NCBI GenBank assembly: GCA_041587435.1
Contig: JBFGYM010000001.1
Span: forward strand, 1-56,933
Origin: Woeseiaceae bacterium
GTDB lineage: Bacteria; Pseudomonadota; Gammaproteobacteria; Steroidobacterales; Woeseiaceae
Direction of reading: 5' to 3'
Length of the DNA stretch: 56,933 nt
Below, piece by piece: positions 33,015 through 56,933 of this stretch (position 1 is its first letter; the number at the start of each line of letters is the position of its first letter). The notes under the pieces are model-generated. The model searched no databases. It was not told the DNA's origin and saw nothing but the letters and a program-made list of their open reading frames with translations. Made by a program: the position numbers and the translations under genes.

Positions 33015-33052
33015 ATTCCACTTTTAAATCAATTGGTTATTGAAACGAATTC

Positions 33053-33069
33053 TGCACTGAACCAGTGCA
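33053..33069. promoter_or_regulatory. Inverted repeat in the dusA / HAD-PlsC divergent region (possible operator)
   Basis: TGCACTG-AAC-CAGTGCA, perfect 7-3-7 palindrome, 39 nt upstream of the dusA ATG. Confidence 0.25.
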
Positions 33070-36287: not shown

Positions 36288-36296
36288 CGCAGGTAC

Positions 36297-37733: not shown

Positions 37734-37836
37734 GCCGATCTCCCGTCGCGCCGGCGGCGCGCGCGTGTTACATACTGGGTCTCGACCTTACTGTATCGGC
37801 CGAGACGGATAAACCCGCCAGCGCCTGCTGAACTCG

Positions 37837-42374: not shown

Positions 42375-43769
42375 CTAGAATCGATAAGCGACTTCGAATT
42401 CGAACTGGCTCATCTCGAGCGTGATCGTCTGCGTCGGGTCGAACGTGCTCGGACCCTGGATCTCGAAACTCGGCGCGTACATCATGGACAGCGACAATGT
42501 ATGGCCGTTTGCGCGGCGACGCGTCCAGCCCACGGTCATGTGCTGTTCCATGACGCCCGGCGCGAGAATATTGAACAGCATCTCGCTGCGCGGAATCGGC
42601 TGGTCGCCGAAGCTGTAGCCGATGCGCCAGGTGTTGTCCTCGTTGGCCGCCCATTCGAAACCTAACTTGTAAACGGTCACGTCGTCCCAGCCGAAGCCCG
42701 CGCCATTCGGTCCGCCGAGGCAGCCGTTCGTCGCCGGCGCAACGCCGGGGTTCGCCGTGAAGCATCCCGTCAGCAGGTTCACGATCGGGTTGTGCACCGA
42801 GTCGACGTCGCTGTAGGCAATGTGCTCGATGTCGACGTTGACGCGTGCCGATTCACCCGGCTTGAAGGACAGGCCGGCCTTGATCGACGACGGGATATCG
42901 AAGCCGCCGTCCTGTGCAAACAGGTCCGCGTAGTCGTCGAACTCGCTCATCGACAGTTTCGACTGGTAGGCCAGGCCGACACTGAAGGTGTCGCTGCCCG
43001 CCCAGAGTCCGGCGGCCACGCCGAACCCGGTCGACATGTCACTGCCGTTGTCGGTCAGGCTCGTTACCGGTGCGCCCATGCCGTTCTGCAGGAACGCGTC
43101 GGCGAAAGTCTGCGTGTACGGCGCGAACGTAGCGACCCCGGTCGCCTCGAACATCTGGGCCGCGACCACCGGGCCGATGCCGATCGCCAGGTTCGGCGTG
43201 AGCTTGCGCGCATAGTTGACGCTCAGGAACGCCTGCATCAGGTCGACGCCGGCCTTGCCGGCGCCGTACACGCCGGGGAACGTGCCGGGCGCACCGCCCT
43301 GCCCGGTCGGGTCGAACAGGGCAGACTGACCGCTGTCCCACTCGGTGTTCATGCCACCGCGGCCGTAAAAGACGAGCGACAGCGCGCTGTCGGCAGACAG
43401 TTCCCAGTTCTTCGCGAGGTAGGGAATCGGGAACGCCTCGTTCTTGCTGTCGTGCTTGCCCTGGCTCAGCGTCAACGCGCCGAAGTTGCCGTTGGCAAAG
43501 CTCGCCGAGGCTTCGTAGGAACGCATCGGGCTGAAGATTGCCAGGCCGAACTGCCAGCTCTCGTCCGCGAACACGCCCAGTGCGGGGTTCGTCGCGGCGC
43601 TGATGCCGCCCATGTTCTCGGGACTGCCGACACCCGTGCCGGCCATGCCTTTCGACTCGGTGCCGACGCCGTGCGTGAAATAGCCGTTGGTCGCCAGTGC
43701 GGAGCTGCTGAAAGCGAACAACCCGGACGCCACCAGGGCGACTGCGGCTTTCGTGGGTGTAACTCTCAT
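42375..43769 (-). CDS. FadL/OmpP1/TodX-family outer-membrane channel for hydrophobic compounds
   Basis: Signal peptide MRVTPTKAAVALVASGLFAFSSSALA, then TNGYFTHGVGTESKGMAGTGVG (FadL N-terminal hatch motif). C-terminus ...FEVAYRF. ATG 43769 overlaps the ArsR stop as ATGA. Confidence 0.85.
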   Translation of the reverse strand: MRVTPTKAAVALVASGLFAFSSSALATNGYFTHGVGTESKGMAGTGVGSPENMGGISAATNPALGVFADESWQFGLAIFSPMRSYEASASFANGNFGALTLSQGKHDSKNEAFPIPYLAKNWELSADSALSLVFYGRGGMNTEWDSGQSALFDPTGQGGAPGTFPGVYGAGKAGVDLMQAFLSVNYARKLTPNLAIGIGPVVAAQMFEATGVATFAPYTQTFADAFLQNGMGAPVTSLTDNGSDMSTGFGVAAGLWAGSDTFSVGLAYQSKLSMSEFDDYADLFAQDGGFDIPSSIKAGLSFKPGESARVNVDIEHIAYSDVDSVHNPIVNLLTGCFTANPGVAPATNGCLGGPNGAGFGWDDVTVYKLGFEWAANEDNTWRIGYSFGDQPIPRSEMLFNILAPGVMEQHMTVGWTRRRANGHTLSLSMMYAPSFEIQGPSTFDPTQTITLEMSQFEFEVAYRF

Positions 43770-44113
43770 CGTTTTTCTCCCTGCGATTCGCAAAATACTT
43801 CGTGAAGCGTTTTCATTACCATGGGCGCCTCTTCCCCCGCCAGCGAATAGCTGACCGATTGCGCATGTTTCCTGGCTTTGACGATCTTTTCGCGGCGCAG
43901 CACAGCGAGGTGCTGGGACAGCGCGGACTGGCTGAGCCCGAGAATCTCCTGCAGTTCGCTGACGGTCTTTTCACCCTCCGACAGCTGGCACAGGATCATC
44001 AGGCGCCATTCGTTGGCCATGGCCTTGAGCAGCTCGACGGCATGCGCCGCGACGTCGTGCAGCTCCGTGAGTTTTTCGAAGTCCTCCACTGTGTTGACGG
44101 TGTCCTCGATCAT
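43766..44113 (-). CDS. ArsR/SmtB-family transcriptional regulator with two cysteines (sHdrR/SoxR-like)
   Basis: Winged HTH ...LLKAMANEWRLMILCQLSEGEKTVSELQEILGLSQSALSQHLAVLRREKIV... ATG 44113 overlaps the lbpA stop as ATGA; the TTG at 44122 in the ORF track is the alternative start. Confidence 0.85.
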   Translation of the reverse strand: MIEDTVNTVEDFEKLTELHDVAAHAVELLKAMANEWRLMILCQLSEGEKTVSELQEILGLSQSALSQHLAVLRREKIVKARKHAQSVSYSLAGEEAPMVMKTLHEVFCESQGEKR

Positions 44114-44553
44114 GCGCCGCAACCGCCGAATCCCTCGGAATCCATCTTGGCTTCGTAAGCGCCGCTGACGTTGCTGCCGATGACGAGCGAACCCTTCACC
44201 GAGTCCCAGTCCTCGGGTTTGAGGATAATCAGCCAGCCCTTCTCGTAGGGATCCTCGTTGGCGATGCTCGGATCCGCGACGAGGTCTTCGTTCACCGCCA
44301 CGACTTCACCGCCCGCAGCGGACTTCGCCGGCCCGACCCACTTGCCGGACTCGAGCGTGCCGCAGGACTTGCCGGCCCGCACGCTGCGACCGACCTTCTT
44401 CGGCGTAAACGCAACGAGCTTGCCGGCCATTGCCGTTGCCACGGTCGTCATACCGATCTTGACCGTCCCGTCGCCGACTTCGGTGAACCAGATGTGGTTG
44501 TCGACGTCGTAGAGCAATTCGTCAGGAAGGTTACATCCCCTTACAGATGGCAT
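44110..44553 (-). CDS. lbpA: GcvH-like lipoate-binding protein LbpA
   Basis: 147 aa with a glycine-cleavage-H fold pattern. Lipoyl-lysine context GTLESGKWVGP. AAGGAGG Shine-Dalgarno. No gcvP or gcvT nearby; instead embedded in the shdr cluster. Confidence 0.88.
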   Translation of the reverse strand: MPSVRGCNLPDELLYDVDNHIWFTEVGDGTVKIGMTTVATAMAGKLVAFTPKKVGRSVRAGKSCGTLESGKWVGPAKSAAGGEVVAVNEDLVADPSIANEDPYEKGWLIILKPEDWDSVKGSLVIGSNVSGAYEAKMDSEGFGGCGA

Positions 44554-44555
44554 AC

Positions 44556-44999
44556 CTATGCCTCCTTTGTGTTGGTCGTCTTGGAGTCCTGCGCGGATCG
44601 GATCGGTTTCGACGAACAGCAGAATTCGCCCAGACCAGCCACCTGCAGCTTTCCGGCAATGAACAAATACAGGTGCTTGGATACCAGAGCCATCATCGAC
44701 AAGCGATCCGTAATATCCGCATGCCCGGGCTGCATCGTAACGAGGTTGTAATGATACGCAACCTCGCGGCAGGTCTCCCGGCAGGCATTGAAGCTCGGGT
44801 CGCCGCGCGCGCCCTGCCGGTGCAGGGCCAGCAGCCGGAATCCTTCGCGGGTCTCGCCGGTCGGGACTTCGCCCCTCGCGACGATCCAGTGCTCGAGCAC
44901 CTCCTCGCTCGCCCGCAACAGCCCGTCGGCCGACGCCGTGCAGTCCCCGGACCGCGGCGGCGCGTCGAAGAACGCCTCGAGTTCGGCAAGGGTTCTCAA
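44556..44999 (-). CDS. Conserved-looking hypothetical Cys-rich protein between shdrB2 and lbpA
   Basis: 147 codons with host-like GC3-rich codon usage. TTG start overlapping the shdrB2 stop (TTGA). Six Cys (GDCTAS, NACRETCRE, EFCCSS). No family recognised. Confidence 0.6.
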   Translation of the reverse strand: MRTLAELEAFFDAPPRSGDCTASADGLLRASEEVLEHWIVARGEVPTGETREGFRLLALHRQGARGDPSFNACRETCREVAYHYNLVTMQPGHADITDRLSMMALVSKHLYLFIAGKLQVAGLGEFCCSSKPIRSAQDSKTTNTKEA

Positions 45000-45937
45000 C
45001 CGAGGCCCCTTTCTTTCAGGAACGCGATCGAGTCATTGACGTTCTCGTGAACACCAACCTTCCTGGGTTTGAGGCCGAGCGCCATGCCGAGCAGCTGCGT
45101 GAAGTAGAGGATCTTGATGTCCACGGTTTCGCCGAGCGTTTTTTCGGCCCGAATCTGGTGCATCTCGAGGCCTGAATGGCAGGTCGGACACTCGGTCGCG
45201 ATAACGTCGGCGCCCGACAGCTTCGCGGCCTTCAGGATATTGAGCACGAGCTTGGTCGACGTGTCGCTGTCCGACAGCGTGTGCGCGCCGCCGCAGCAGG
45301 CCGTCTTCAGCGGGAAATCGACGTTCTCGGCGCCGGCCGCGGCCAGCAAGTCGTCCATGAAATGCGGCTTTGACGTCGATTCGCTGCCCGGACCCTGGTC
45401 CTTCTCGGGAAATATGTGCCGCGGACGCGTGTACATGCATCCGTAGTAATTCGCGACCTTGATGCCCTCGAGGGAGTTCTTTACGCGCGCCTTGAGGCCC
45501 TCCTCGCCGATGGCGTCCTTGATCCAGTCCAGCGCGTGGATGGTCTCGACCTGGCCGGCCTCGTACGTCTTGTGCCCGGCTTTTTGCGACAGGCGATCGA
45601 CAACCTCCGCCGATTCCTTGTCATTGGCGAGGTCGTATTCGGCTTTCTTCAGGTTGTGATAGCAGCCGTTGCAGGGCGCCATCACGACGTCCATGTTCAT
45701 CTCGTTGGCCGCCGTCGACATCACACGCGACGACAGGTACGTCTGGATCTTCGGGTCGATGTTCTTAACTTCCATCGCGCCGCAGCAGTTCCAGTTCTTG
45801 ACCTCGACGAGGTCCAGGCCCAGCGCCTTGCCGACCGCCTTCGTCGAGCGGTTGTACGCGTGGCCGGTGCCCTCGAGCGCGCAGCCCGGGTAATAGGCGA
45901 CCTTCTTGTACTTGTCTTTGGTCGTGCTCATCCGCAA
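44996..45937 (-). CDS. shdrB2: sHdrB2, heterodisulfide reductase-like subunit B (two CCG domains)
   Basis: YYPGCALEG...NWNCCGA and YYGCMYTRP...KTACCGGAH are CCG-domain motifs. Confidence 0.9.
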   Translation of the reverse strand: MRMSTTKDKYKKVAYYPGCALEGTGHAYNRSTKAVGKALGLDLVEVKNWNCCGAMEVKNIDPKIQTYLSSRVMSTAANEMNMDVVMAPCNGCYHNLKKAEYDLANDKESAEVVDRLSQKAGHKTYEAGQVETIHALDWIKDAIGEEGLKARVKNSLEGIKVANYYGCMYTRPRHIFPEKDQGPGSESTSKPHFMDDLLAAAGAENVDFPLKTACCGGAHTLSDSDTSTKLVLNILKAAKLSGADVIATECPTCHSGLEMHQIRAEKTLGETVDIKILYFTQLLGMALGLKPRKVGVHENVNDSIAFLKERGLG

Positions 45938-45943
45938 TCCTCG

Positions 45944-46711
45944 TCAGGCCGCAACGTCTTGCTTGGCCGTTTCAACCAGTTCCGCGAGGCTCAGCGCCTG
46001 CTCGTGCTTTTCGTTCTGCTCGTCGATGTATTCCTGGATCGCGGCGGACGCTTTCGACCAGTCGCTCGTCTTCGGGGCGAACAGTGTCGCAAGCCCCATG
46101 CGCGTCAACAGGCTCATCGGCAAACCCTTCAACATGCGCTTGACCATCTCGATCATCCACGGCTGCATCAGGCCCTGGCCGGTGCGCGCAAAAAAGCGAC
46201 GGATCGTGCGGCTCTCCTCGATCTTGCCCGTCTTCACGATCTGCTCCGTGAACACCTCGTCGAAGTGCATCGACGGCGATTTTTCCGTGTGGCCTTTCAT
46301 CTCGAGCCAGTGCGACGTCGCCTTCATGACGCCTTCCGGGAAGACGTCGCGCGGGCAGGCATACGTGCACTTGTTGCACGAAATGCATTGCCAGATGATG
46401 TCCTTGTCGCGCAGCAATTCGGACTCGTAGCCCATGCGGATCAGGTAAATCCAGTATCGCGGATTGAAGTCGTTGTTGATCGCGTTGACCGTGCACGCGT
46501 TGGTGCAGGACCCGCATTGCCAGCAGCGGTGAATATTCTCGCCGCCCGGTAACGCCGCGATTTCCTCCTCCAGGCTTTCGTTGTAGTCATTCACCACGCG
46601 CGATTCGATGAACGTGCTCCAGTGCCCCGATACGTCGACACCGTCCAGCACGAGGTGCTCGTGTTCCTTGAGGTTCTCCGGGCGAATCAGCGATTTTTCA
46701 TGAATAGGCAT
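45944..46711 (-). CDS. shdrC2: sHdrC2, heterodisulfide reductase-like subunit C (2x[4Fe-4S])
   Basis: CWQCGSCTNACT and CISCNKCTYACP ferredoxin-type motifs. HdrC-like helical C-terminus. Confidence 0.88.
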   Translation of the reverse strand: MPIHEKSLIRPENLKEHEHLVLDGVDVSGHWSTFIESRVVNDYNESLEEEIAALPGGENIHRCWQCGSCTNACTVNAINNDFNPRYWIYLIRMGYESELLRDKDIIWQCISCNKCTYACPRDVFPEGVMKATSHWLEMKGHTEKSPSMHFDEVFTEQIVKTGKIEESRTIRRFFARTGQGLMQPWMIEMVKRMLKGLPMSLLTRMGLATLFAPKTSDWSKASAAIQEYIDEQNEKHEQALSLAELVETAKQDVAA

Positions 46712-46724
46712 GCGGGTCTTCCGT

Positions 46725-47567
46725 CTAATTCAGCTTGCTGTCGTCGATGCGAAACGCCTCGCCGTCGATCGACTTGAGTCGGGTACGGCCATCGCCGGGC
46801 TGCACGCCGTCCAGGCCGAGCAGTCGCCGTGTGTGTTGCATCGGGTCCTCGGGCGCCGTGAAGTCGGCCCTCAGGTAGGAACCGCCCTGCTCGCAGATGT
46901 ACTGCGCGTAGATCTGCGCGCACACCACGTCGACGTAAAAGAGGACGTCGCGAAACACGCCGTTGTCGCTGAGAAACTGCGATAACTCCTCGCGCAGCAT
47001 GATGTAGGTACCGAAACCGTCGGCGACCGGGATCGTCATCGCGTCGACGTCTTCGCCGTGCCAGATTTCCCGGATGACGCCCGTGTTCGCCTTGGCGTCC
47101 CAGACCCAGCGATTCATCAGCGGCACGCGCTCGGGATCGGCGTTGTGCAGCAACTCGGCGGCCAGGTCACGCACCCAGCGGTGTTTCTTGTCCCGGGGAA
47201 ACGCGTCACAGAAACGGCCGACGCGATTGTCGATGTGATCGCCGTCGTCAAACAGGCCGACAATGTGGCTGCGCATCTCCGTGAATGCGTGGTCGTTCAG
47301 CCAGCCACCGATGCGGCGACGCACGGTCGACATGAAGGTGCAAAGCCCCTTGAAGGTTTCGAGATCGAGCTCTGCCAGGTCCCGCTCGACGAGCGCCTGG
47401 CGAAACATCGTGCTCTTCAGCTTGACTGCGTCGACATAGCGTTCGATTCCGCCGGTTTGCTCGGCGCGCGTGACCGCGTCCTGGAACGCCGCGCGTATCG
47501 CGGGGCCGTGAAGGTCGAGCACGGGACGCTCGAATTCTTGCGGCTTGAGTGCGGTGGTCGACGGCAT
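46725..47567 (-). CDS. shdrH: sHdrH, conserved hypothetical protein of shdr clusters
   Basis: 280-aa ORF in the invariant position between shdrA and shdrC2. No cofactor motif. Confidence 0.7.
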   Translation of the reverse strand: MPSTTALKPQEFERPVLDLHGPAIRAAFQDAVTRAEQTGGIERYVDAVKLKSTMFRQALVERDLAELDLETFKGLCTFMSTVRRRIGGWLNDHAFTEMRSHIVGLFDDGDHIDNRVGRFCDAFPRDKKHRWVRDLAAELLHNADPERVPLMNRWVWDAKANTGVIREIWHGEDVDAMTIPVADGFGTYIMLREELSQFLSDNGVFRDVLFYVDVVCAQIYAQYICEQGGSYLRADFTAPEDPMQHTRRLLGLDGVQPGDGRTRLKSIDGEAFRIDDSKLN

Positions 47568-47574
47568 CGCGGGA

Positions 47575-48618
47575 CTACGCGGACTTCAGGGACTTGGTGC
47601 TGGAGAGGACCGCCATTGCGGCGGCGTGGCCCTGCGCAATCGAATCGTCGATGGTCTCGGGGCCCGTCGCCGAGCCCGCCACGAAAACGCCGGGGCGTGA
47701 CGTGGCGCCCATCACGCCGTAGCGGTTGGCAACGCCGATGTAACCGTGCGGCTCGAGATCGATGCCGAAGGTCTCGGCAATCTGCGGGTTATCGACGTTC
47801 GGATCCATGCCGATCGCGTGCACGACCATGTCGAACGGGATCGTGATCGGGCGTTTCACCAGCGTGTCCTCGCCCTTGACGATGAGCTTCTCACCGTCTG
47901 ACGTCACTTCGGCAATGCGCGCCTTGATGTACTTGACCTTGAACTCTTCCTGGCTCTTCCAGTAGTACTTGGTTTCGTACAAGCCGAACGTGCGAATGTC
48001 CATGTAGTAAATGTAGACGTGGCAATCCGGCAACTCCTCGCGAATTTCCATCGCGAGGTTCGACGAGACGGTGCAGCAGATCTTCGAACACCATTCCCGG
48101 CCGATCTGGCGGTCGCGCGAACCGACGCAGAGCAGGATCGCGACGCGCTGCGGCTTGCGGCCATCCGACGGGCAGCGAACCCCCTGCCCCGACGAGATCA
48201 TCTGCTCGACCTGCGTCGTGGTGACGACGTCGGCATACGAGCCGAAGCCCCATTCGGGCTTGTTCACCGAGTCGAAGTGCGTGAATCCGCTGCACAGGAT
48301 CACGGCCTCGGCTTCGACCGCGTCGCCGTTCGACAGGTGCGCCGTGAAATTGCCGGGCGCGCCGTCGAACGTCGTCACCGTGGCGCCGGTGACGACGTTG
48401 ACGCGACCTTCGTCTTCGACGCGCTTCACCATGCCGCCGATGGCGTCTTTCGCCCACTCACCCGTCGGCACGAGCTTGGCGTAGCCGGACAGGATCGGCG
48501 CCCCGCCCAGGCGGTCTTCCTTTTCGACAAGGACGCAATCCTTGCCCACGGTCGCGAGACTGTGAGCGGCGGCCAACCCTGCGGGTCCGCCGCCTACGAT
48601 CAGAACGGGTTTACTCAT
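47575..48618 (-). CDS. shdrA: sHdrA, FAD- and [4Fe-4S]-containing heterodisulfide reductase-like subunit A (short form)
   Basis: VLIVGGGPAGLAAA dinucleotide fold. Cys cluster CVGSRD...WCSKICC. 347 aa, so it lacks the ferredoxin/MvhD extensions of methanogen HdrA. Confidence 0.9.
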   Translation of the reverse strand: MSKPVLIVGGGPAGLAAAHSLATVGKDCVLVEKEDRLGGAPILSGYAKLVPTGEWAKDAIGGMVKRVEDEGRVNVVTGATVTTFDGAPGNFTAHLSNGDAVEAEAVILCSGFTHFDSVNKPEWGFGSYADVVTTTQVEQMISSGQGVRCPSDGRKPQRVAILLCVGSRDRQIGREWCSKICCTVSSNLAMEIREELPDCHVYIYYMDIRTFGLYETKYYWKSQEEFKVKYIKARIAEVTSDGEKLIVKGEDTLVKRPITIPFDMVVHAIGMDPNVDNPQIAETFGIDLEPHGYIGVANRYGVMGATSRPGVFVAGSATGPETIDDSIAQGHAAAMAVLSSTKSLKSA

Positions 48619-48651
48619 GGTCTGTTGCCTGTTTCGTTTGGCGTGTAAGGG

Positions 48652-50001
48652 TCAGCCCTTGTGCTCCACGGCCTTGTAGCCGGGACCGGACGTAATCATC
48701 AAGCGCGGATCGTAGAGGGTCTCCCCACGCCCGGCTTCGACTTCCTTGAGGTAGTCCTCGAATTCCTTCTTCTTGGCCTGCCAGTCGATACCGAGCTTCT
48801 CGAACAGCGTTTCCGTCGGCGAAGCGTGCCAGTGCGACTGCACGATCTTGTAGGGATGCGCGCCGCAGGCAAGGGCGGCTAACTGCACATCCGCCAGCAC
48901 CGGCAGCTCGACGGGCTTGCCGGCCGCTGCACCGATCCACTGGTTCTTGTCGAGTGTCGTGATGCAGCCCGTGTCGTGGCCCACCATCACGTCGGCACGG
49001 GCCTCTTCCTGCGCGACACGGAGCTTGCGATCGATTGCAAACGAGCGCGTGAATTCGCGTTCCGAAATAATGTGGCGGAAGCCGAATCCGCAGCAGTCGT
49101 ACCAGGTCGAGTAGTCGATGACCTGCGCTCCCAGGGTTTCGAGGACGCCGGTCGTCACAGCCACACGGTTGCCGTCGAGCACGTCGTCGTCGTAGATGGC
49201 GTCCTGCGGGACCATCTTGTACACGTGACACGCCGGATGGACGGTCGCGCGGATGGACGCGAGGTCGATCACCTGGTGCTCCTTGATGCGCTTGCGCATG
49301 ACGTGCACCCACTCGGAGTAATGCACGACTTCCTCGGGAATGAGCAGCTTGCCGTCGACGAGGCGGCCGAGCTTGCCGAGAATGGTCTTCACACGATCGC
49401 GCAGCTTGGCCGAGTGAACCAGGTATTCGCGGACTTCCTTGTAGTTGCCGAAAGACGTGCCGCAATGCACGAGCGGGTAGAAGTAGCCCTCCGGCAGTCC
49501 CTGCGCCTTGGCGGAGACGTAGGCCTGGTGGAAGTTGCGCAGGAAGACGGCGGCCAGGCTCTCGATGTTGCCGATACCGGAGCCGTGGTAGTTCCAGGCC
49601 GTGCACGAGGTCTGGTCGGTCTCGTCCAGGTAGCGGATGTCCATCTTGTTCATGAGCCACAGGAGGGACGCGGGATAGCCCGGAATGTTGCCGCACTGGC
49701 CGCAGGACTTGTGGTGCCACAACTGGTTGGTGGGGACTTTCTTGTCCCAGCCGTACAGCGTCTTGGCAATGACGGGCTCGTGCTCGTCGGTGACGCGGTG
49801 CACGGCGATCTCGCCGTCCTTTTCGAGTTCCCACATCGCATCGCGCACGTCTTCGACGCGATCCTTGTTGGTCAGCATCGAGCGCTTGTTGATAATCTGG
49901 TCGACCCAGACCGTCGCGGTGTGCGCATCCTGTTTCGACAAGTTCGAGTCGACCCACTCCGACCCGTGTCCCGTAAACCGTTCTCCGCCGTTACCCGCCA
50001 T
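48652..50001 (-). CDS. shdrB1: sHdrB1, heterodisulfide reductase-like subunit B
   Basis: 449 aa. Cys-rich CCG-type motifs (HKSCGQCG, DCCGFGFRH, GHDTGCITT). Confidence 0.88.
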   Translation of the reverse strand: MAGNGGERFTGHGSEWVDSNLSKQDAHTATVWVDQIINKRSMLTNKDRVEDVRDAMWELEKDGEIAVHRVTDEHEPVIAKTLYGWDKKVPTNQLWHHKSCGQCGNIPGYPASLLWLMNKMDIRYLDETDQTSCTAWNYHGSGIGNIESLAAVFLRNFHQAYVSAKAQGLPEGYFYPLVHCGTSFGNYKEVREYLVHSAKLRDRVKTILGKLGRLVDGKLLIPEEVVHYSEWVHVMRKRIKEHQVIDLASIRATVHPACHVYKMVPQDAIYDDDVLDGNRVAVTTGVLETLGAQVIDYSTWYDCCGFGFRHIISEREFTRSFAIDRKLRVAQEEARADVMVGHDTGCITTLDKNQWIGAAAGKPVELPVLADVQLAALACGAHPYKIVQSHWHASPTETLFEKLGIDWQAKKKEFEDYLKEVEAGRGETLYDPRLMITSGPGYKAVEHKG

Positions 50002-50037
50002 GGCACCCCTCCAAAAAAATGTTACCCGCTTGCGCGG

Positions 50038-50784
50038 CTAATCGTCGTCCTGCTCGTCGAGCCAGTCTTCGTAGTCGTCACGCTTCTCGTCCATGATGTC
50101 CATGATGACGTCGAAAAGGTTTTCATCGATGGTCTCGAGGCTGTCGAGGACACCGGTCTCTTCCCAGATGGTGTAGAGCTCGACCGAGGTCTTGAGATTC
50201 ACTTCCCAGGCCGTCGCCGTGGTATGCAGCGTGGGCATCGGAATCGCCTTGCGCAGCGTCGTGAGCGGCGCATCGACCTTGGAAACGTTCGGTCCCCAGT
50301 CGGCGAAGCCTTCCGGGTTGATCATGTCGGGCGACAACTGGTTGCCCGTCGAGATCAGCTTGAGCATGACGCGGCTGAACGGGCGCAGCACGCTCTTCGC
50401 CGACTCCATGCCGTGTTTGATTGCCGCCTCGCGCATCAGCATGACCAGGCCGCCCGGCGAATTGCCGAACGGACACCGCGCGGCACACGTGTAGCACTGG
50501 GCACAGGACCAGATCTTCTCCTGCATCGCATCGTGGATGCCCTCCAGATTCTCGGTCCAGAGAAGCTGCACGATTTCGCGCGGGCTGAAATCGTAGTAGT
50601 GAGCCGCCGGGCACGTCGCGGTGCAGATGCCGCAATTGAGGCAGCCGTTCAGCTCGTGGTCGAAGCGCAGGTCCGCCTGGATGTCCTGGAAAATCTCCTC
50701 CAGCTGAGCGCGATCGACGGGTGGCGAATCCGAAACCGGGTCGCCAATGTATTCCTGTACCCGGGAAGCCGAGGAATGGGACAT
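50038..50784 (-). CDS. shdrC1: sHdrC1, heterodisulfide reductase-like subunit C (2x[4Fe-4S])
   Basis: CLNCGICTATCP and CAQCYTCAARCP motifs. Confidence 0.88.
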   Translation of the reverse strand: MSHSSASRVQEYIGDPVSDSPPVDRAQLEEIFQDIQADLRFDHELNGCLNCGICTATCPAAHYYDFSPREIVQLLWTENLEGIHDAMQEKIWSCAQCYTCAARCPFGNSPGGLVMLMREAAIKHGMESAKSVLRPFSRVMLKLISTGNQLSPDMINPEGFADWGPNVSKVDAPLTTLRKAIPMPTLHTTATAWEVNLKTSVELYTIWEETGVLDSLETIDENLFDVIMDIMDEKRDDYEDWLDEQDDD

Positions 50785-50798: not shown

Positions 50799-51176
50799 TC
50801 AGTAGGAAAGTACCCGGCAGTCGCCTTCCATGACTTCTTCAATGAGGTGCGCGCCGCCGACGATACCTTCGCATTCGGGAATCAGGTCTTCCTTGGTCAT
50901 GTCGAACAGGTCGAGGTTCGGCGAGCAGCAGTAGAACTTGGCACCGGCTTCGTGCGCATCCTGGATAAAGCTGTACACCGATTTCGGCGAGCCCTCCTTG
51001 ACGAACAGCTTCTCGGCAACGCCCTTTTTCATGAGCCGTCCCGAGGTCGCCGTGCAGATGACGTCGACGTCGTAGTCCATCGCAGCCGCGACGGTCGCCT
51101 GGAAAATCGGCGCCCCGAGTTCCTCGCCGTTGCGCGGGTCGGTGTTCGCCATGACGATGATCAGTTTTTCAGCCAT
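50799..51176 (-). CDS. dsrE3: DsrE3-type sulfurtransferase (DsrE/DsrF family)
   Basis: MAEKLIIVMANTDPRNGEELGAPIFQATVAAAMDYDVDVICTATSGRL... with conserved Cys in AKFYCCSPN. ATG 51176 is preferred over ORF start 51206. Confidence 0.8.
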   Translation of the reverse strand: MAEKLIIVMANTDPRNGEELGAPIFQATVAAAMDYDVDVICTATSGRLMKKGVAEKLFVKEGSPKSVYSFIQDAHEAGAKFYCCSPNLDLFDMTKEDLIPECEGIVGGAHLIEEVMEGDCRVLSY

Positions 51177-51229
51177 TTCTCGTGTGTCCCCTCGAGCCTG
51201 ACGCAAGTCAAACAGTTAATTAGGATATA

Positions 51230-52018
51230 CTAAACTACCGGCGCCTCCAAATCCCTGGCGGCCCGCGGAGCGGCCATCAGGGACGTGCATTGCACGAGTC
51301 CGGTCATGATGGGCACGAGCTCGTCCGCGAGGACGGGCTGCAGCCCGCGCAGGCGTTCGAGCTGCCGCGCCGCGTCCGCCGGCACCTCCTCGAACTCCAT
51401 GATCAGGTCCTCGACCATGCCCAGCTTGATGCCGGGGTTGGCCGAAAAACCAAAGGCGTTCTCGCCGACCTGCCATACGGCGGGCCGATCCCGCTCGTCG
51501 CGGGCCAGGATCACAGCATCCGGCGGCGGCACGGGCCAGTCGCGCATGTAGACGACCTGGTGAAAAGACGCCGGCAGGTAGCCGTTCAGCGCGTCGTCGC
51601 GCGTGCGCGTCACGGCGAGGTGTTCGAGGGTCAGCGCCCGCGCCTCGACGCCTCCGCCCGCGGCCAGTGCCAGGATCTGCGCGCCGAGGCCGAAGCCCAC
51701 GACCGGTGTGCCCTCGTCGAGGCGCTGCCTCGTAATGTCGATTTCCTGCCCGAGCGTCGGCAGGTCACGTCCGCCGGCCGCGCCCCAGGGCCCCCCGCCG
51801 AGCAGGATCAGCGCGTCCGCCGGCAGGTCGGGCGCCGGCAGCCTGCCGGCTGCGAACGGGCGGTAATACTGGAAACGGATGCGGCGACCTTCGAGGTGGT
51901 CCTCGATCAGGCCGAGGTACTCGCCGGCCGTGTGCTGGATCACGGCGACGACGTTCATGGGGTTCGCTTCGCTGGCAGCGAGCATGAAGGCATCGTCGGG
52001 GTTCTTGCACTGCGCCAT
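51230..52018 (-). CDS. Class I glutamine amidotransferase-like protein lacking the catalytic triad
   Basis: GATase1 fold pattern (ALILLGGGPWG...PVVGFGLGAQILA). The nucleophile Cys position reads Gly (GFGLGAQ vs G-x-C-x-G-x-Q). The HPE-type motif reads ANPG. Confidence 0.7.
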   Translation of the reverse strand: MAQCKNPDDAFMLAASEANPMNVVAVIQHTAGEYLGLIEDHLEGRRIRFQYYRPFAAGRLPAPDLPADALILLGGGPWGAAGGRDLPTLGQEIDITRQRLDEGTPVVGFGLGAQILALAAGGGVEARALTLEHLAVTRTRDDALNGYLPASFHQVVYMRDWPVPPPDAVILARDERDRPAVWQVGENAFGFSANPGIKLGMVEDLIMEFEEVPADAARQLERLRGLQPVLADELVPIMTGLVQCTSLMAAPRAARDLEAPVV

Positions 52019-52020: not shown

Positions 52021-53097
52021 CTAGGCGCCTTCCCGCTTCGACAACGCGTCGTTGATCGATGCAATGAAGTCCTCGGCGCCCGCGCTGAGCATGCCGATCT
52101 CCGACTCTTCGAAAAAGCGCTTCACGGTTGCCTCGACGTCCTCGAGGCGCGTGCCGGCCAGGGCAGCTTCGAGATCGAACACGACGCGCGGCGGCGTCAC
52201 GAAGAAGTCCCCGGTGATCAGGACCCGCTGCAGGATGCCGAGCTTCGGGCCCTCGAGCTTGACGAACGCGTTAATCGAACCGCCGGGACCCGTGCACGAC
52301 CCCTCGAGCAACTGGTCTGTGCCGCCCGGGTTGTCGATTTCGCGCAGGAAGTCCTCGGTGCCGATTTCTTCGTCGAAATGCGCCTGCGCCCGCGCCTCCT
52401 CGGCAGCGGTGATCTCGCCGGGTTCGGCCTCGATGCCGAGTCCCGCCTCGAAGCCGCGCACCAGGGCGGCCTGGATTGTCTCCATATCGGGCAGGTCGTC
52501 GCCGAGCAACTCTTTCAGCGTCACGACGCGTTGTTCGGCCGAGTCGAGATCGTGCTTGGCGACCTTGGCGGCGGGAATGTTCAGCGCCCGCACCATCTGC
52601 GCCGGGTTCATGTCGACGAGCACGGTGCCCTGGTAAATGAGAATATCGCCGTCGAAGAAGCCGCCGGTCCCGCTGATCTTGCGGCCGTCGACTTCGATGT
52701 CGTTGCGTGGACGGAACTTTGCCTTCACGCCGAGCTCTCGCAGTCCTGTTGCCGCCGCATTGCAGATCGCCGCGGCCAGGTCCGGCAGGTTCGCGATGCC
52801 GAGCGACGCGCGGTGAAACACGAGTTCCCAGCCGAGCTGGCCTTCGTCGAGGTAGATCGCACCACCGCCCGTAACGCGGCGCACGACGCCGACGCCGTCC
52901 TCGGCGCAATAGTCGAGGTTGACCTCGCGGCTGAGGTCCTGATGCCTGCCGATCAACGCCGTCGGCGGAAAGCGCATGAAACGGATCGTGTCCGGCACCC
53001 TGTCCTGCTGCCGGAGTTCGATCAGGGCCGGGTCGAACGCAATATTGGCGCGGCCTTCGCGAACACCGGTATCAATGATGCGAAACGGCGCGCCCAT
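52021..53097 (-). CDS. Lipoate-protein ligase, LplA type with fused C-terminal domain (sLpl(AB)-like)
   Basis: RFMRFPPTALIGRHQ..., RRVTGGGAIYLD, GRKISGTGGF (lipoyl-AMP lysine motif). About 100-aa accessory C-terminal domain. Confidence 0.88.
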   Translation of the reverse strand: MGAPFRIIDTGVREGRANIAFDPALIELRQQDRVPDTIRFMRFPPTALIGRHQDLSREVNLDYCAEDGVGVVRRVTGGGAIYLDEGQLGWELVFHRASLGIANLPDLAAAICNAAATGLRELGVKAKFRPRNDIEVDGRKISGTGGFFDGDILIYQGTVLVDMNPAQMVRALNIPAAKVAKHDLDSAEQRVVTLKELLGDDLPDMETIQAALVRGFEAGLGIEAEPGEITAAEEARAQAHFDEEIGTEDFLREIDNPGGTDQLLEGSCTGPGGSINAFVKLEGPKLGILQRVLITGDFFVTPPRVVFDLEAALAGTRLEDVEATVKRFFEESEIGMLSAGAEDFIASINDALSKREGA

Positions 53098-53100: not shown

Positions 53101-54282
53101 TTACTCGACCGTAACCGGGATATCGAGCTGCTTGCGGATTTTCCTGAGGTCTTTCTTCTGCGGCTGGAACGGGTAACTCGCGATGTCGCTCGGCGGCGAG
53201 TCGCCGTACGGCCGGTCGCAGGCCGAGATGTCGTCCTGGAACTTGCCAGGGCAGCCCGAGGTGCGGAACGCGATGCCGGCGTCGATGACGTCGTTCAGCT
53301 CGGCATCGCCGATGCCGTAGCTCTTGACCCTGCCCTGGTCGTCGAACGTCATCTGTCCGACACGGACGCCGCGGTAGTCGATCAGGTAGCGCGCGAGCTG
53401 CACGCGGCGCCACTGGTCGCGCGGCGTCGCGGGCAGGTGATCCATGAGCGAACCGTCCTCCGGGAAGAAGCAGAACATGTGGCTGTGACCGCCGAGGTCC
53501 ACGAGCTCCTGGACCAGGTTCAGGACCTCGTACTCCGTTTCGCCCATGCCGACGATGATGTGTGCGCCGAATTTGCCGGCGCCGAAAATGTCCCTCGCCT
53601 CTAGCAGGATATCCCAGTATTTCTGCCACTTGTGCGGCGACTGCACGCCCTTGCCGCGCGTCCGGTCGAAGATCTCGGGCGTTGCGGCGTCCAGTGCCAC
53701 GGTGAAGATATCCGCGCCGAGGTCCTTGCATTGCTGGACGTCGTCGCGGGTCATCGTCGTGGGGTTCGACAGGATCGACACGGGAATTGCGCCGGGGTCG
53801 ATGCGGTCCGTCCATTGCTTGAGAACCGTGAACGTATCGTCCTCGGAGCGCGGGTGCGTAATCATCGAAATGCACATGCGGTGGAACGGGCTGGCGTCGG
53901 GATCCCTGGCGACGATGTCGACGATGTCGGCCATCGGCACGGCCGGCCAGTCGACGCGGATGAAGTTGCGATCGGCGTAATCGCGCTCGGCTTCGCGATG
54001 GCGCGCAAGGCCGCAGTAGGCGCAGTTCGCGCGGCATCCTTCCGGGTACGTCAGCAACAGGTTCAGGCAGCGCGTGCAGTCGCAACCGTACATGCGGCCC
54101 CCCATGATCCCGAGCGTGATGGCGGCCGCGTTCGACAGCTGCACGTATTCCGGCGACTTCATGTGCGGCGCGAGGAAATTGTTGTTCGGCAGGTAAACGC
54201 CTTCGGGCGGAATGTCGTTCGCCTTGACGGGCTTGCCGTTGCGCCGTTCGACGGGCGTCTTGCCGGGCAAGCGGGGCTCCAT
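53101..54282 (-). CDS. LipS-type radical SAM protein (archaeal-type lipoyl synthase component, LipS1/LipS2 family)
   Basis: CRANCAYCG (CX3CX2C) radical SAM cluster motif. BioB/LipS-like. Adjacent to the ligase. The start is uncertain: ATG 54282 has no Shine-Dalgarno, and the frame is also open to ATG 54408 (GAGGA Shine-Dalgarno) and TTG 54423. Confidence 0.8.
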   Translation of the reverse strand: MEPRLPGKTPVERRNGKPVKANDIPPEGVYLPNNNFLAPHMKSPEYVQLSNAAAITLGIMGGRMYGCDCTRCLNLLLTYPEGCRANCAYCGLARHREAERDYADRNFIRVDWPAVPMADIVDIVARDPDASPFHRMCISMITHPRSEDDTFTVLKQWTDRIDPGAIPVSILSNPTTMTRDDVQQCKDLGADIFTVALDAATPEIFDRTRGKGVQSPHKWQKYWDILLEARDIFGAGKFGAHIIVGMGETEYEVLNLVQELVDLGGHSHMFCFFPEDGSLMDHLPATPRDQWRRVQLARYLIDYRGVRVGQMTFDDQGRVKSYGIGDAELNDVIDAGIAFRTSGCPGKFQDDISACDRPYGDSPPSDIASYPFQPQKKDLRKIRKQLDIPVTVE

Positions 54283-54285
54283 ATT

Positions 54286-54384
54286 GGTGACAGTTTCGGT
54301 GACAGTCACCTTAACTCCGGCCGAGCTGTCGCCCCTGCCACGTTGGTCAGGGGAGTTAAGGTGACTGTCACCGAAACTGTCACC
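54286..54384. repeat. Perfect 33-bp inverted repeat with 33-nt spacer (99-nt palindromic element)
   Basis: 54286-54318 GGTGACAGTTTCGGTGACAGTCACCTTAACTCC is the exact reverse complement of 54352-54384. Each arm contains the 6-1-6 palindrome GGTGAC-N-GTCACC. Confidence 0.9.
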
Positions 54385-54419
54385 ATTCTTGTGCTGTCTG
54401 CAACCCATATTGTCTGTCC

Positions 54420-55457
54420 TCAAGCGGCGAACGACGCCTGCAGTCGTGATTTGATGTCGCTGCCCACCTTGATCGAGCAGCAGGAATGCGCCTGTTCGAA
54501 CGGGCGCCCGATCGTGTGCGCGACCGACACGGCCCCGTCGGCCGGGAACGCGATGCCGTCAAGCCCGGCCATGATGGCGTAGGCGTCCGTGACGCGCTTG
54601 TGCATGCCGGGCGGCCGCGCACAGCCGAGCAGCACCTGCTGGTCGGCGAGCCGCTCGCGCGCCTCGAGGAAGATGCGGCCGACGTCCGAGGTTCCGGGCG
54701 TGACGAACGTGCCCGGTTTCGCGTAGAACGGCATGATCACGACGAGCACGAGCGCGTTGACGTCGTAGCGGCTGATCATGTCCAGCGCATTGGCCTCGCC
54801 GAGGATCTGCCCGTAGTGCAGCCCGACGACTATGTGCGGCGTGACCTCCATCGACGTGGAACACAGTGCTGCCAGCGTCTTCTCGAAGTCCTCCACGGGA
54901 CGCCGGAGCTTGTATACCTGCTCGATCGTCTCCTGCGCGCCGATGACGTCCATCATCACCGTGTCGACGCCGGCCGATTCCATCTGCTTCGCGCGGCGCT
55001 CGTCGAGCAGCGCCGTGTGCACGGCGATCTTGAGGCCCGGGAAGTCGCGCTTGAGCCCCTCGATGACCGGCATGTAACGGCCGTACGGAATCTCGTTCTT
55101 GCGGTTCGAGCCGCCCGACAGGAGAAAGCCGCTCAGGGCCTGCGTCTTCACCAGGTGGCGGACTTTTTCGTCCAGCATGGCCGGGCTCGTCGCCGGAATC
55201 ATCGGCTCGAGGATCTTCTTCTGGCAATGATCGCAGTTCAGTCCGCACTCGCCGGCCGTGATGGAAAACGCCGGGAAGCTGTTCTTGCCGCAGCCCTCGA
55301 GCTCCGACGTCTCGTACTCCTTGAAAGTCGGGGTCGAAAATCGGATCGGCCGCGATACGACACGGTCGGCGCGGCGTTCGAACTGCGCGACGAGATCCGC
55401 GTCGAAAGCGGCGTCCTCGAGGTCCTCGATCGTGAGCAGCGCATTCAGCCAGGTCAT
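54420..55457 (-). CDS. LipS-type radical SAM protein (second lipoyl synthase component)
   Basis: CGLNCDHCQ (CX3CX2C). 345 aa. 12 nt downstream of the HDAC-like gene. Confidence 0.8.
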   Translation of the reverse strand: MTWLNALLTIEDLEDAAFDADLVAQFERRADRVVSRPIRFSTPTFKEYETSELEGCGKNSFPAFSITAGECGLNCDHCQKKILEPMIPATSPAMLDEKVRHLVKTQALSGFLLSGGSNRKNEIPYGRYMPVIEGLKRDFPGLKIAVHTALLDERRAKQMESAGVDTVMMDVIGAQETIEQVYKLRRPVEDFEKTLAALCSTSMEVTPHIVVGLHYGQILGEANALDMISRYDVNALVLVVIMPFYAKPGTFVTPGTSDVGRIFLEARERLADQQVLLGCARPPGMHKRVTDAYAIMAGLDGIAFPADGAVSVAHTIGRPFEQAHSCCSIKVGSDIKSRLQASFAA

Positions 55458-55469: not shown

Positions 55470-56567
55470 TCAAAAAGCGTCAACGAGCAATCGTATCTCG
55501 TCGCGGATGGGCCCGGGGTGCGGAGTGTCCGCCAGCGTCGTCAACCATTCCTCGCGCATGTGGTCCTCGTCAACGAGATCGCACTTCATGTTGCACAGGT
55601 ACTCCGTCGCTTCCGGCGGCAGGCGCTCCGGGAACGGCCGCCCGCTGATGCGGCCCCACATGCCGGCCCAGTAACGGGTCACGGTCCATGGATTATAGCC
55701 GCCGCCGCCGAGGATGACGGTCGGCAGCCCGCGCGCGATCAGCTTGTCGACGGCGTCCCAGAGCGCGACGTTGGACAGTTCCATCGTCGACAGCGGGTCT
55801 CCCGCGAGGCAGTCCGCGCCGCAACACAGCACGAGCGCATCGGCCTGCACCCAGTCCACGAGCGGCACCACGGCGCCTTCGAAGAGAAACCCGAACTCGC
55901 TGTCGTTCAGGCCGCGCGGCACCGCGAGATTGTAAACACCCGCCTCGGGCCGCGAGCTCGTGCCGCTGAAGGGCCAGCGTTTCGCCTCGTGCAGCGACAG
56001 GGTCGTCGCGCGTGGCTCGTCGACGAACGCATCCTCGACGCCGTCGCCATGATGGGCGTCGAGATCGACATAGAGAACGCTGCGCCGGCCTTCCTTCAGG
56101 AGGGTCAGGATGGCAAACACGGGATCGTTGAAATAGCAGAAGCCGCTGGCACGGTCCGACCGCCCGTGGTGCGTGCCGCCGGTCGGATGGAACACGACGT
56201 GCCCGCGGCTCGCGAGTTCGGCCGAGAGGATCGAACCGCCGACCGTCATCGACGCACGTTCGAACAGTCCCTCAAAGAGCGGATTCTCGAAGGTGCCGAC
56301 CCGGTAGCGCTCGCGCACGTCGCGCTCGACGGACCCTGTGGCGTTTGCGTATTGCAGTGCCCGCACGTACGCACGACTATGAAACTCGACCAGCTGTTCG
56401 ACGGTGGCGGGGCGGCTCTCGCGGAACGCGGCTTCGTCGAGCCAGCCGAGCATCTTCAACAGGTCGACGACGGCTGCATGGCGGACGATGTTGAGCGGGT
56501 GATTGCGAGCGAAAGCCGGCTTTCGGTAGATCTCGCTGCCCACGAAAAACGGCGCGCTGACGGTCAT
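55470..56567 (-). CDS. Histone-deacetylase-family Zn-dependent deacylase (AcuC/Aph-like)
   Basis: All catalytic motifs are present: GGTHHG (tandem His), DLDAHHGDG (Asp/His Zn ligands), GADCLAGDPL (third ligand Asp), GGGGYN (catalytic Tyr). Confidence 0.88.
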   Translation of the reverse strand: MTVSAPFFVGSEIYRKPAFARNHPLNIVRHAAVVDLLKMLGWLDEAAFRESRPATVEQLVEFHSRAYVRALQYANATGSVERDVRERYRVGTFENPLFEGLFERASMTVGGSILSAELASRGHVVFHPTGGTHHGRSDRASGFCYFNDPVFAILTLLKEGRRSVLYVDLDAHHGDGVEDAFVDEPRATTLSLHEAKRWPFSGTSSRPEAGVYNLAVPRGLNDSEFGFLFEGAVVPLVDWVQADALVLCCGADCLAGDPLSTMELSNVALWDAVDKLIARGLPTVILGGGGYNPWTVTRYWAGMWGRISGRPFPERLPPEATEYLCNMKCDLVDEDHMREEWLTTLADTPHPGPIRDEIRLLVDAF

Positions 56568-56661
56568 CGAACGAGAATATTATATTTCCCTAATAAAGAC
56601 AATTCTGATAATCTGATATGCGCTAGCTGCATACCCCTTACCATGACCGAGGTGCCGAGAA
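56568..56661. promoter_or_regulatory. AT-rich divergent promoter region between the HDAC-like gene and the dsrE2-like gene
   Basis: Markedly AT-rich for this genome. Perfect TATAAT on the minus strand (56579-56584). GATAAT on the plus strand (56607-56612). Tandem 8-mers TCTGATAA/TCTGATAT (56604-56619). Confidence 0.5.
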
Positions 56662-56933
56662 ATGTCCGCTGAAGAAAAAAGCATGTCCATCATTGTGACC
56701 AAGGGGTCTCTCGACTGGGCGTACCCGCCGTTCATCCTGGCCACGACGGCCGCGGCGATGGGCCTGCCCGTCACGATGTTTTTCACCTTCTACGGCCTGC
56801 CCCTGTTGCTCAAGAAACTCAACCTGCAGGTAACCGCCGCCGGCAACCCGGCGATGAAGATGCCGATGATGGGCATGCACATGGGCTTGCCGAACATACT
56901 GACGGCCATTCCGGGCATCGACGCCGGCTGTTC
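56662..56933 (+). CDS. DsrE2-like (DsrE/DsrF/DrsH family) protein, N-terminal part (runs off the right edge)
   Basis: Not in the ORF track (no stop). Own translation: MSAEEKSMSIIVTKGSLDWAYPPFILATTAAAMGLPVTMFFTFYGLPLLLKKLNLQV...; the GSLDxAYPP...FFTFYGL pattern is typical of this family. GAGG Shine-Dalgarno 9 nt upstream. Confidence 0.65.
   Translation, partial: MSAEEKSMSIIVTKGSLDWAYPPFILATTAAAMGLPVTMFFTFYGLPLLLKKLNLQVTAAGNPAMKMPMMGMHMGLPNILTAIPGIDAGC

Follow-up and report, generated by a model that had tools for sequence, protein, structure and literature searches.

In a 56,933-nucleotide (nt) stretch of DNA from a Woeseiaceae bacterium (GenBank assembly GCA_041587435.1, contig JBFGYM010000001.1, positions 1 to 56,933; the whole stretch is referred to as the window), the first gene of a lip-shdr-lbpA unit encodes a Zn-dependent acyl-lysine amidohydrolase of the histone deacetylase (HDAC) family. 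The gene is inherited together with the lipoate-assembly gene lipS1 across three proteobacterial classes, and this synteny strongly supports a functional association of the HDAC protein with lipoate assembly. In the reading favoured here, to which a probability of roughly 40% is given, the protein would be a cytoplasmic Zn-dependent N-epsilon-acyl-lysine amidohydrolase that serves as a dedicated accessory of the sLpl(AB)-LipS1/LipS2 pathway and resets the acceptor lysine of the lipoate-binding protein LbpA.

HDAC-family enzymes hydrolyse N-epsilon-acyl-lysine, which is also the form in which LbpA carries its lipoyl and octanoyl groups. The sLpl(AB)-LipS1/S2 route and the LbpA/sHdr system have been described recently, and the accessory genes lipT, lipX and lipY are without proven roles. 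In this route, LipS1/S2 insert sulfur after free octanoate has been ligated to the lysine of LbpA (PMC10332631). The type I shdrC1B1AHC2B2 genes and the sLpl(AB)-LipS1/S2 lipoate-assembly genes have been reported by the Dahl group (PMC10332631, PMC11094781).

The HDAC gene is linked to lipS1 across proteobacterial classes

The unit in the window contains sixteen genes in the order HDAC-lipS1-lipS2-slpl(AB)-lipX-dsrE-shdrC1B1A-hyp-C2B2-orf-lbpA-arsR-fadL. The HDAC stop codon and the lipS1 start codon are separated by exactly 12 nt (GGAAACGACGGT), the same gap that had been given in the initial annotation, and the remaining junctions, from the HDAC gene through the FadL-like gene, range from -28 to +36 nt. 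Because all junctions are short, the sixteen genes look like one transcription unit.

Conservation of the HDAC-lipS1 pair was examined in both directions. The forward scan used one genome per GTDB species and covered the best 80 of 562 relatives (53–86% identity), which were found in Woeseiaceae, Chromatiales, Lysobacterales, Steroidobacteraceae, Nevskiaceae, Burkholderiales, Casimicrobiaceae and several Alphaproteobacteria. Neighbouring genes were located by tblastn with the proteins of the window, and 78 loci had at least 300 nt of sequence downstream of the HDAC gene. In 75 of these, lipS1 lies directly downstream on the same strand, mostly at stop-to-start distances of -14 to +50 nt and with many 4-nt overlaps. 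The whole HDAC-lipS1-lipS2-slpl(AB)-lipX-dsrE-shdrC1-B1-A series is present within the 10-kb flank in 42 loci. The reverse scan, in which a ten-sequence LipS1 alignment was searched against metagenomes, returned 80 loci with 77–91% LipS1 identity and therefore covers close relatives only; 72 of them had at least 300 nt upstream of lipS1. An HDAC gene was found directly upstream of lipS1 in 69 of the 72. Taken together, 144 of the 150 informative loci, which span several orders of Gamma-, Beta- and Alphaproteobacteria, have the two genes side by side. Conservation of this linkage had been chosen beforehand as the point on which the initial annotation could fail, and it was found in the genome and metagenome loci alike. 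By way of background, 397 assemblies with core shdr genes have been counted in GTDB R207 (PMC11094781).

The HDAC-lipS1 pair is constant while its surroundings change. The upstream neighbour varies among dsrE, fadL, arsR, tusA with sox genes, and an AurF-like gene. A lipT-sized insert of ~1.0–1.1 kb separates lipS1 from lipS2 in 17 other HDAC-linked loci (among them L048, L051, L055, L057, L059, L060, L062, L064, L066, L069, L070, L073-L075, L079 and L087), and the pair is kept regardless. In L087 the insert encodes a geranylgeranyl-reductase-like FAD protein, i.e. lipT, which is missing from the window and from most Woeseiaceae-type loci. The lip and shdr modules are also found apart. In L060, shdr-lbpA-arsR comes first and is followed by a separate HDAC-headed block, lipS1-lipT-lipS2-slpl(AB)-lipX, and in L064, L057 and L061 the HDAC-lip block occurs without shdr genes in the sequence covered. 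Since the HDAC gene stays with the lip genes when the modules split, its constant partner is the lipoate-assembly module and not sHdr. In L059 and L062 the order is HDAC-lipS1-lipT-lipS2-lipX-dsrE-shdr. Their clusters lack slpl(AB), so that the ligase gene may lie elsewhere or be missing; because the HDAC gene is kept in both, its presence does not depend strictly on that of the ligase gene.

The three exceptions among the LipS1-seeded loci keep a remnant of the HDAC gene together with at least part of a conserved upstream element that is described below. These remnants are an N-terminal stub of 27 codons in L153 (L153:3363-3446; MHNLQPKSTPEKAPLFVGSELFASQAI, then a stop), a C-terminal stub of 23 codons in L159 (L159:3439-3510), and a C-terminal stretch matching HDAC residues 317–353 in L160 (L160:1536-1646; tblastn E 2e-4). 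The lipS1 gene is uninterrupted in all three, as are lipS2 and slpl(AB) in L159 and L160. In L159, lipX and all shdr genes are gone as well, and lipS1-lipS2-slpl(AB)-dsrE-lbpA-arsR-fadL is what is left. The three loci are independent secondary deletions of the HDAC gene.

Gene fusions of the Rosetta-stone type were also considered. The only real fusion found is the 659-residue protein P0243, in which an AurF-like protein and the HDAC are joined in a single open reading frame (ORF). It matches L074 (L074:451-1278), a Kiloniellales metagenome-assembled genome where a gene for an AurF-like di-iron oxygenase (PF11583) stands directly upstream of the HDAC-lipS1 pair. A second candidate, P0257, looks like a frameshifted or garbled call and was rejected as a fusion. 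Neither protein is informative with respect to LbpA, GcvH or the ligase.

Fold, active site and clade position

The HDAC ORF starts with ATG and has 365 codons. Its product matches the Pfam family PF00850 (Hist_deacetyl) with E 2.3e-60 and 204.9 bits (cut-off 27.9), and residues 23–304 align with positions 1–295 of the 298-position profile, i.e. with the full domain. No NCBIfam family, the AcuC model included, was matched at E <= 0.001. The best match of known structure by sequence is the Aquifex aeolicus HDLP (1C3R; E 4.7e-70 over residues 9–359), and matches to RPD3, HDAC2 and HDAC8 are far weaker (E ~1e-47). None of the top 50–60 matches is an APAH/HDAH (class II-like) enzyme; all are HDLP, RPD3, HDAC1/2 or HDAC8 (class I). 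The AlphaFold2 (AF2) model of the protein has a predicted local distance difference test score (pLDDT) of 93.2 and a predicted template-modelling score (pTM) of 0.93. Foldseek placed this model closest to HDLP (1c3r; TM 0.93, 35% identity) and next to HDAC8/HDAC2 (TM 0.83–0.86), so that it has the alpha/beta deacetylase fold.

The catalytic residues were located in an alignment with Aquifex HDLP (1C3P numbering) that comprised 81 lip-linked homologs and 116 sequences of the HDLP group. The His-His dyad corresponds to H133/H134 in the motif THHG (HDLP H131/H132), the charge-relay Asp residues to D168 and D175 (HDLP D166 and D173), two Zn ligands to D170 and H172 in DLDAHHGDG (HDLP D168 and H170), the third Zn ligand to D252 in GADCL (HDLP D258), and the transition-state Tyr to Y291 in GGGGY (HDLP Y297). 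All eight residues (H133, H134, D168, D170, H172, D175, D252, Y291) are invariant in the 81 lip-linked homologs. According to the alignment and the AF2 model, the gene product is catalytically intact, with every catalytic residue kept. An intact catalytic set had been claimed in the initial annotation and is borne out; its list of elements is correct in all assignments except one, in that the third Zn ligand is D252 and not the Asp of the GDPL motif (D257). The GDPL motif is itself conserved, and its Leu259 is a channel residue.

Similarity to HDLP (PDB 1C3P/1C3R/1C3S) extends to the catalytic His-His pair, the Asp-His-Asp Zn site, the Tyr and the channel residues P, G, F and L, which are identical, and the alignment spans the C-terminal helical extension that eukaryotic HDACs lack. 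The lip-linked proteins are nevertheless distinct from HDLP, with an identity of about 35–40% (33–39% in one of the alignments), a separate clade and the motif GGTHHG in place of GGMHHA, and they fall outside the HDLP orthologous group. HDLP was rejected as a lip-linked ortholog, as the orthologs of Aquifex pyrophilus and Hydrogenobacter thermophilus have Usp/GyrB/GlyS and dCache/PurD as neighbours and lie away from lip/shdr genes. Aquificota have sHdr. HDLP itself is not known to have a defined natural substrate.

When 1.84 billion representatives were searched exhaustively and without a profile, 455 proteins were recovered at E <= 1e-30. One of these, P0242 (52% identity), heads the series HDAC-lipS1-lipT-lipS2-slpl(AB)-lipX-dsrE-shdrC1B1A, with tusA and sox genes upstream. 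The nearest outgroup consists of HDAC-like proteins of 44–47% identity (P0244, P0245 and P0246), each of which is followed by a DUF192 (PF02643) gene and differs from the lip-linked proteins in having no lip/shdr neighbours. The pairing with DUF192 is conserved, and in L085:8001-9616, L086:3052-4612 and L089:1831-3449 the two ORFs overlap or abut. As a side observation, a Usp gene is found near the DUF192-linked HDAC gene in L085, as beside the HDLP ortholog of Aquifex pyrophilus (L081). In a neighbour-joining tree, calculated without support values, the lip-linked sequences form one clade, the DUF192-linked sequences lie just outside it and the HDLP group is further away. At the catalytic His, the motif is GGTHHG in all lip-linked sequences, GGMHHA in 116–120 HDLP-group sequences and GGLHHA in class I HDACs. 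GGTHHG was rejected as a marker of lip linkage, as it also occurs in the DUF192-linked P0245. The lip-linked proteins are apparently a new and undescribed, context-defined subfamily of a known kind of enzyme.

Public sources label the lip-linked homologs as 'acetoin utilization protein AcuC'. Graf et al. 2024 place the bacterial AcuC-type enzymes in sub-clusters 2c and 2d, beside the eukaryotic class I enzymes. Bacillus subtilis AcuC (BsAcuC) is a slow deacylase that accepts diverse acyl chains and acts physiologically on AcsA K549 (PMC11532494). The HDAC protein resembles BsAcuC (acuABC, cluster 2c) in belonging to the class-I-type bacterial branch, in the (G/A)GGY motif and in the foot-pocket motif that replaces RPP. 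It differs in its motif at the catalytic His (GGTHHG versus GGGLHH in AcuC) and in its neighbours, which in the window are dsrE, lipS1, lipS2 and slpl(AB); the unit contains no acuA, acuB, acsA, GNAT or CBS-domain partner. Because the acu context is lacking and no curated model is matched, the protein is not an AcuC sensu stricto, and the database name is a misnomer that misleads for the lip-linked clade.

Candidate roles of the HDAC-type enzyme

In the proposed mechanism, the HDAC protein would strip an acyl group off the cofactor-acceptor lysine of LbpA. The group removed could be a blocking acetyl, an acyl of the wrong length, a stalled and partly sulfurated octanoyl, or a lipoyl damaged by sulfur. 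LbpA would thereby return to its apo form and be re-octanoylated by sLpl(AB), and LipS1/S2 would then rebuild the dithiolane, making this a reset or repair step that is expressed together with the rebuilding enzymes. Several findings point in this direction. The only acyl-lysines intrinsic to the lip module are those on LbpA, LbpA with its acceptor lysine is encoded in the same 16-gene unit as the HDAC protein, and LipX, the only other hydrolase-like protein of the module, is without a nucleophile Cys.

By analogy with known enzymes, among them the acyl-promiscuous BsAcuC (PMC11532494), the chemistry of acyl removal from LbpA is plausible for an HDAC. The known lipoamidases are sirtuins (E. 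coli CobB and SIRT4) and Enterococcus Lpa, which carries an amidase signature. The lipoamidase activity of CobB is documented in bacteria (PMC5596343), and in vitro HDAC11 cleaves octanoyl as well as lipoyl groups off lysine, with a Michaelis constant (KM) of 10.6 uM for a lipoyl peptide (bioRxiv 10.1101/212043). Since HDAC11 does so, a Zn-HDAC is able to carry out delipoylation chemistry. This in vitro activity slightly weakens the earlier statement that no HDAC-type lipoamidase is known. The reaction proposed here, hydrolysis of the N-epsilon-lipoyl/octanoyl-lysine amide, is the same as that of the known lipoamidases. The lip-linked HDAC differs in not being homologous to the sirtuins or the amidase-signature enzymes, and HDAC11 belongs to another branch (class IV); none of the known lipoamidases is encoded within a lipoate-assembly operon.

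Several points weigh against a reset of LbpA. LbpA as the HDAC substrate is a reasoned guess, and the assignment itself is one that we infer. In addition, a ligase and a deacylase that act on the same lysine risk a futile cycle unless correctly lipoylated LbpA is spared. Positions that are both clade-specific and invariant are limited to V109, T295 and C329, and none of them is among the checked catalytic and channel positions; they were rejected as a clue to the substrate because they allow no substrate assignment. As no checked position has changed in a clade-specific manner and GGTHHG is shared with other proteins, the sequence gives no sign of a pocket for an eight-carbon (C8) acyl or dithiolane group. 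The Thioalkalivibrio genes lipS1-slpl(AB)-lipT-lipS2 alone make holo-LbpA in E. coli (PMC10332631). Finally, the three natural deletions leave lipS1 (and, in L159 and L160, lipS2 and slpl(AB)) intact, so the HDAC step is non-essential. The initial annotation had proposed de-acylation of LbpA as a repair, recycling or regulatory step; of this proposal, the association with the lip module is strongly supported (75/78 and 69/72 loci), and LbpA with its octanoyl or lipoyl group remains the conjectural part.

The HDAC gene is an accessory and not a core component of the lip module. The published model clusters of Thioalkalivibrio, Thiorhodospira and Hyphomicrobium are described with lipS1/slpl(AB)/lipT/lipS2, with lipX or lipY, and with no HDAC gene (PMC10332631). 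Like lipT, lipX and lipY (Tanabe et al. 2023), the HDAC gene is variably present and embedded in the lipS1/lipS2/slpl(AB) cluster beside shdr-lbpA; it differs from them in that its chemistry is hydrolytic, not redox or transport, and in its absence from the pathway papers searched. No mention of an HDAC, AcuC, deacetylase or lipoamidase was found in the searchable papers on LbpA, LipS1/S2 and sHdr or in the text supplements of PMC10332631, subscription-only literature being outside this search.

A somewhat doubtful alternative is that the enzyme supplies precursors and acts on donors other than LbpA. It would be a lipoamidase or octanoyl-lysine amidase that frees the octanoate or lipoate that sLpl(AB) strictly needs, either from octanoyl-/lipoyl-GcvH/E2 made by the housekeeping LipB/LipA route or from imported lipoyl- or octanoyl-amides. 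Such a relay of hydrolysis and religation would be a functional analogue of the LipL amidotransfer relay and would fill a gap concerning the source of free octanoate. It is consistent with the HDAC gene travelling with the lip module and not with shdr, with its retention in L059 and L062 where the cluster has no slpl(AB), with the putative FadL-like fatty-acid importer encoded in the same unit, and with the exclusion of LipX as a hydrolase. Against this stand the cost of stripping essential GcvH/E2 cofactors, the ability of the model organisms to manage without an HDAC, and the lack of a C8 acyl pocket signature. Moreover, the HDAC co-occurs with the FadL-like importer and does not replace it.

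An AcuC-like regulatory deacetylase is unlikely. The enzyme would in this case clear acetyl groups, added enzymatically or by acetyl-phosphate, from non-cofactor lysines of pathway proteins and so keep the module active. Its targets might be LipS1/S2, sHdr subunits or the lysine of sLpl(AB) that binds adenylate, the last in parallel to the activation of AcsA by AcuC. The nearest relatives are indeed generic AcuC/HDLP-type protein deacetylases, the constancy of the checked catalytic and channel positions suggests that the ancestral acyl preference was kept while the protein target is new, and the coupling to lipS1 specifically is tight. However, no AcuA-type acetyltransferase was found in the unit, acetylation of sLpl(AB), LipS or sHdr proteins is undocumented, and the strict following of the lip module would be left unexplained.

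It is improbable that the protein is an amidohydrolase of small molecules, for instance of an acetylpolyamine or some other N-acyl metabolite, with a product useful in sulfur oxidation. Some bacterial members of the HDAC family have indeed become small-molecule amidases (DmhA, PrpH, the polyamine deacetylases of cluster 4; PMC11532494), but these enzymes belong to clusters 1b and 4, whereas the HDAC protein matches the class-I-type HDLP, RPD3, HDAC2 and HDAC8, and the BsAcuC-type enzymes of cluster 2 are lysine deacylases (PMC11532494). Least credible is an unrelated housekeeping deacetylase that came to stand upstream of lipS1 by chance, the fallback of the initial annotation (an AcuC-like protein that joined the operon): the three deletions that leave the rest of the module intact and the absence of the gene from the published model clusters would fit it, but it is rejected because the adjacency is very strongly conserved (144/150 loci, several orders and classes) with short or overlapping junctions, and the pair persists while every other neighbour rearranges and the linked proteins are monophyletic. 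Class-I-type similarity and the synteny statistics thus make these last two alternatives unlikely.

The linkage implies a removal, editing or supply step that is absent from the published pathway, and the HDAC is a further enzyme embedded in the lip module with a hydrolase chemistry opposite to that of the ligase. No fewer than 75 species-level genomes, many from sediment Woeseiaceae, and dozens of metagenomic contigs carry the HDAC-lip pair, which gives the class-I-type HDAC homologs of bacteria a concrete biological setting. It is conceivable, though less likely than not, that the protein is the first physiological Zn-dependent lipoyl/octanoyl-lysine amidase of the HDAC type, an 'eraser' built into the operon, through either strip-and-rebuild of LbpA or transfer of C8/lipoyl units. 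Strip-and-rebuild, if true, would restore LbpA molecules after chemical damage to the lipoyl arm from the reactive sulfur carried on it. Transfer would take C8/lipoyl units off housekeeping lipoyl proteins by hydrolysis and religate them to LbpA; either would be the first biological role for a bacterial HDLP relative. A delipoylase or de-octanoylase activity would add a new step to a recently discovered pathway. Gel-shift and mass-spectrometry assays for LbpA already exist, and the three deletion variants offer material for comparison.

Promoter element, gene content and surroundings of the unit

Coordinates of the unit and its flanking features are collected in Table 1. The divergent intergenic region ahead of the HDAC gene has a GC content of 0.41, compared with ~0.51–0.77 in 100-nt windows within the unit. 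The only other AT-rich junction of the unit is the 23-nt gap between lipX and dsrE, so the region, described earlier as the sole AT-rich promoter-like one of the unit, is indeed the only sizeable one. A conserved element of ~45–50 nt (TATCAGAATTGTCTTTATTAGKGAAATATAATATTCTCG) is located at 56568-56620, directly upstream of the HDAC start, with its core TCTTTATTAGGGAAATATAATATTCT at 56574-56599 on the minus strand. The element is near-identical in more than 30 Woeseiaceae-type loci and occupies the same position in L001-L037, L153, L159, L160 and others, and a core of TTTATTAG..AAA..GAATA is found again in loci of Lysobacterales, Steroidobacteraceae and others. The element occurs only once in the window, with 0 occurrences expected by chance. 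In the window, 11 nt separate the end of a TATAAT-like hexamer from the HDAC ATG, so the leader would be very short or absent.

The 56568-56620 region is probably a promoter combined with an operator for the ArsR-type regulator of the unit. A sigma-70 promoter scan gave 3 sites versus 1.7 expected, no significant excess, and did not call the conserved minus-strand element, so it is conservation on which the promoter assignment is founded. No published sHdrR/SoxR operator consensus for comparison was found in PMC12423496. The divergent DsrE-like gene on the other side of the region is the conserved upstream neighbour in most loci.

Table 1. Features of the lip-shdr-lbpA unit and its upstream flank, with positions in the window.
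Feature	Position	Strand	Basis or remark
HDAC-family (HDLP/AcuC-like, class-I-type) Zn-dependent acyl-lysine amidohydrolase, 365 aa, first gene of the unit	55470..56567	-	PF00850, HDLP match, AF2/Foldseek
Divergent intergenic region, 94 nt, GC 0.41, putative promoter and operator	56568..56661	.	Conservation
DsrE-like gene, divergent, 5' part, runs past the window end	56662..56933	+	PF13686 E 2e-22
LipS1-type radical SAM lipoyl synthase subunit	54420..55457	-	Radical_SAM; NF053742 E 9.9e-59, below curated cut-off; synteny
LipS2-type radical SAM lipoyl synthase subunit	53101..54423	-	NF053743 E 9.2e-53, below curated cut-off
sLpl(AB)-type lipoate:protein ligase	52021..53097	-	PF21948 LplA-B_cat E 3.3e-45; LplB-like C-terminus
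LipX, GATase1-like, nucleophile Cys absent (GFGLGAQ)	51230..52018	-	Weak GATase hits
DsrE-family sulfur transferase	50799..51206	-	PF13686
Type I sHdr block	44996..50784	-	Arrangement matches shdrC1B1AHC2B2 (PMC11094781)
shdrC1	50038-50784	-	
shdrB1	48652-50001	-	
shdrA	47575-48618	-	
hyp	46725-47567	-	
shdrC2	45944-46711	-	
shdrB2	44996-45937	-	
Conserved 147-aa ORF, TTG start, between shdrB2 and lbpA	44556..44999	-	No Pfam match
LbpA, GcvH-like lipoate-binding protein, acceptor lysine in LESGKWVG, candidate substrate	44110..44553	-	PF01597 GCV_H E 9.7e-32
ArsR-type regulator (sHdrR/SoxR-like)	43766..44122	-	PF01022 HTH_5
FadL/TodX-like outer-membrane transporter (LipY-like putative fatty-acid transporter)	42375..43793	-	PF03349

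The lipS1 and lipS2 genes of the window overlap by 4 nt, with no lipT between them. Their names are based on the best NCBIfam hits and on synteny, since the scores are below the curated cut-offs. LipX, so named in PMC10332631, is labelled a 'putative glutamine amidotransferase' in the literature, and lipY is a putative fatty-acid transporter (PMC10332631). In all homologous loci (~55), Gly replaces the GATase1 nucleophile Cys of LipX (G-[IFMLV]-G-[LV]-G-[AST]-Q), and an amidotransferase or Cys hydrolase function is for this reason unlikely. The 147-aa ORF has a CC pair near its C-terminus and a homolog of 63% identity at the same position in L060; a comparison with LbpA revealed no similarity.

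Beyond the end of the FadL-like gene, the stretch 39247-40953 (-)/41045-42193 (-) encodes an unusually long (568 aa) class-V aminotransferase/cysteine-desulfurase-like protein along with an OprB-family porin. The regions 12617-24634 and 28387-38778 of the window are ordinary chromosome, with a flagellar hook/rod/ring/filament cluster (FliD, flagellins, FlgK, FlgJ, FlgI, FlgH, FlgG, FlgF, FlgE) and assorted other genes, including those for GTP-PEPCK, an adenylate cyclase-FHA protein, Dus, a WS/DGAT wax-ester synthase and MgtE.

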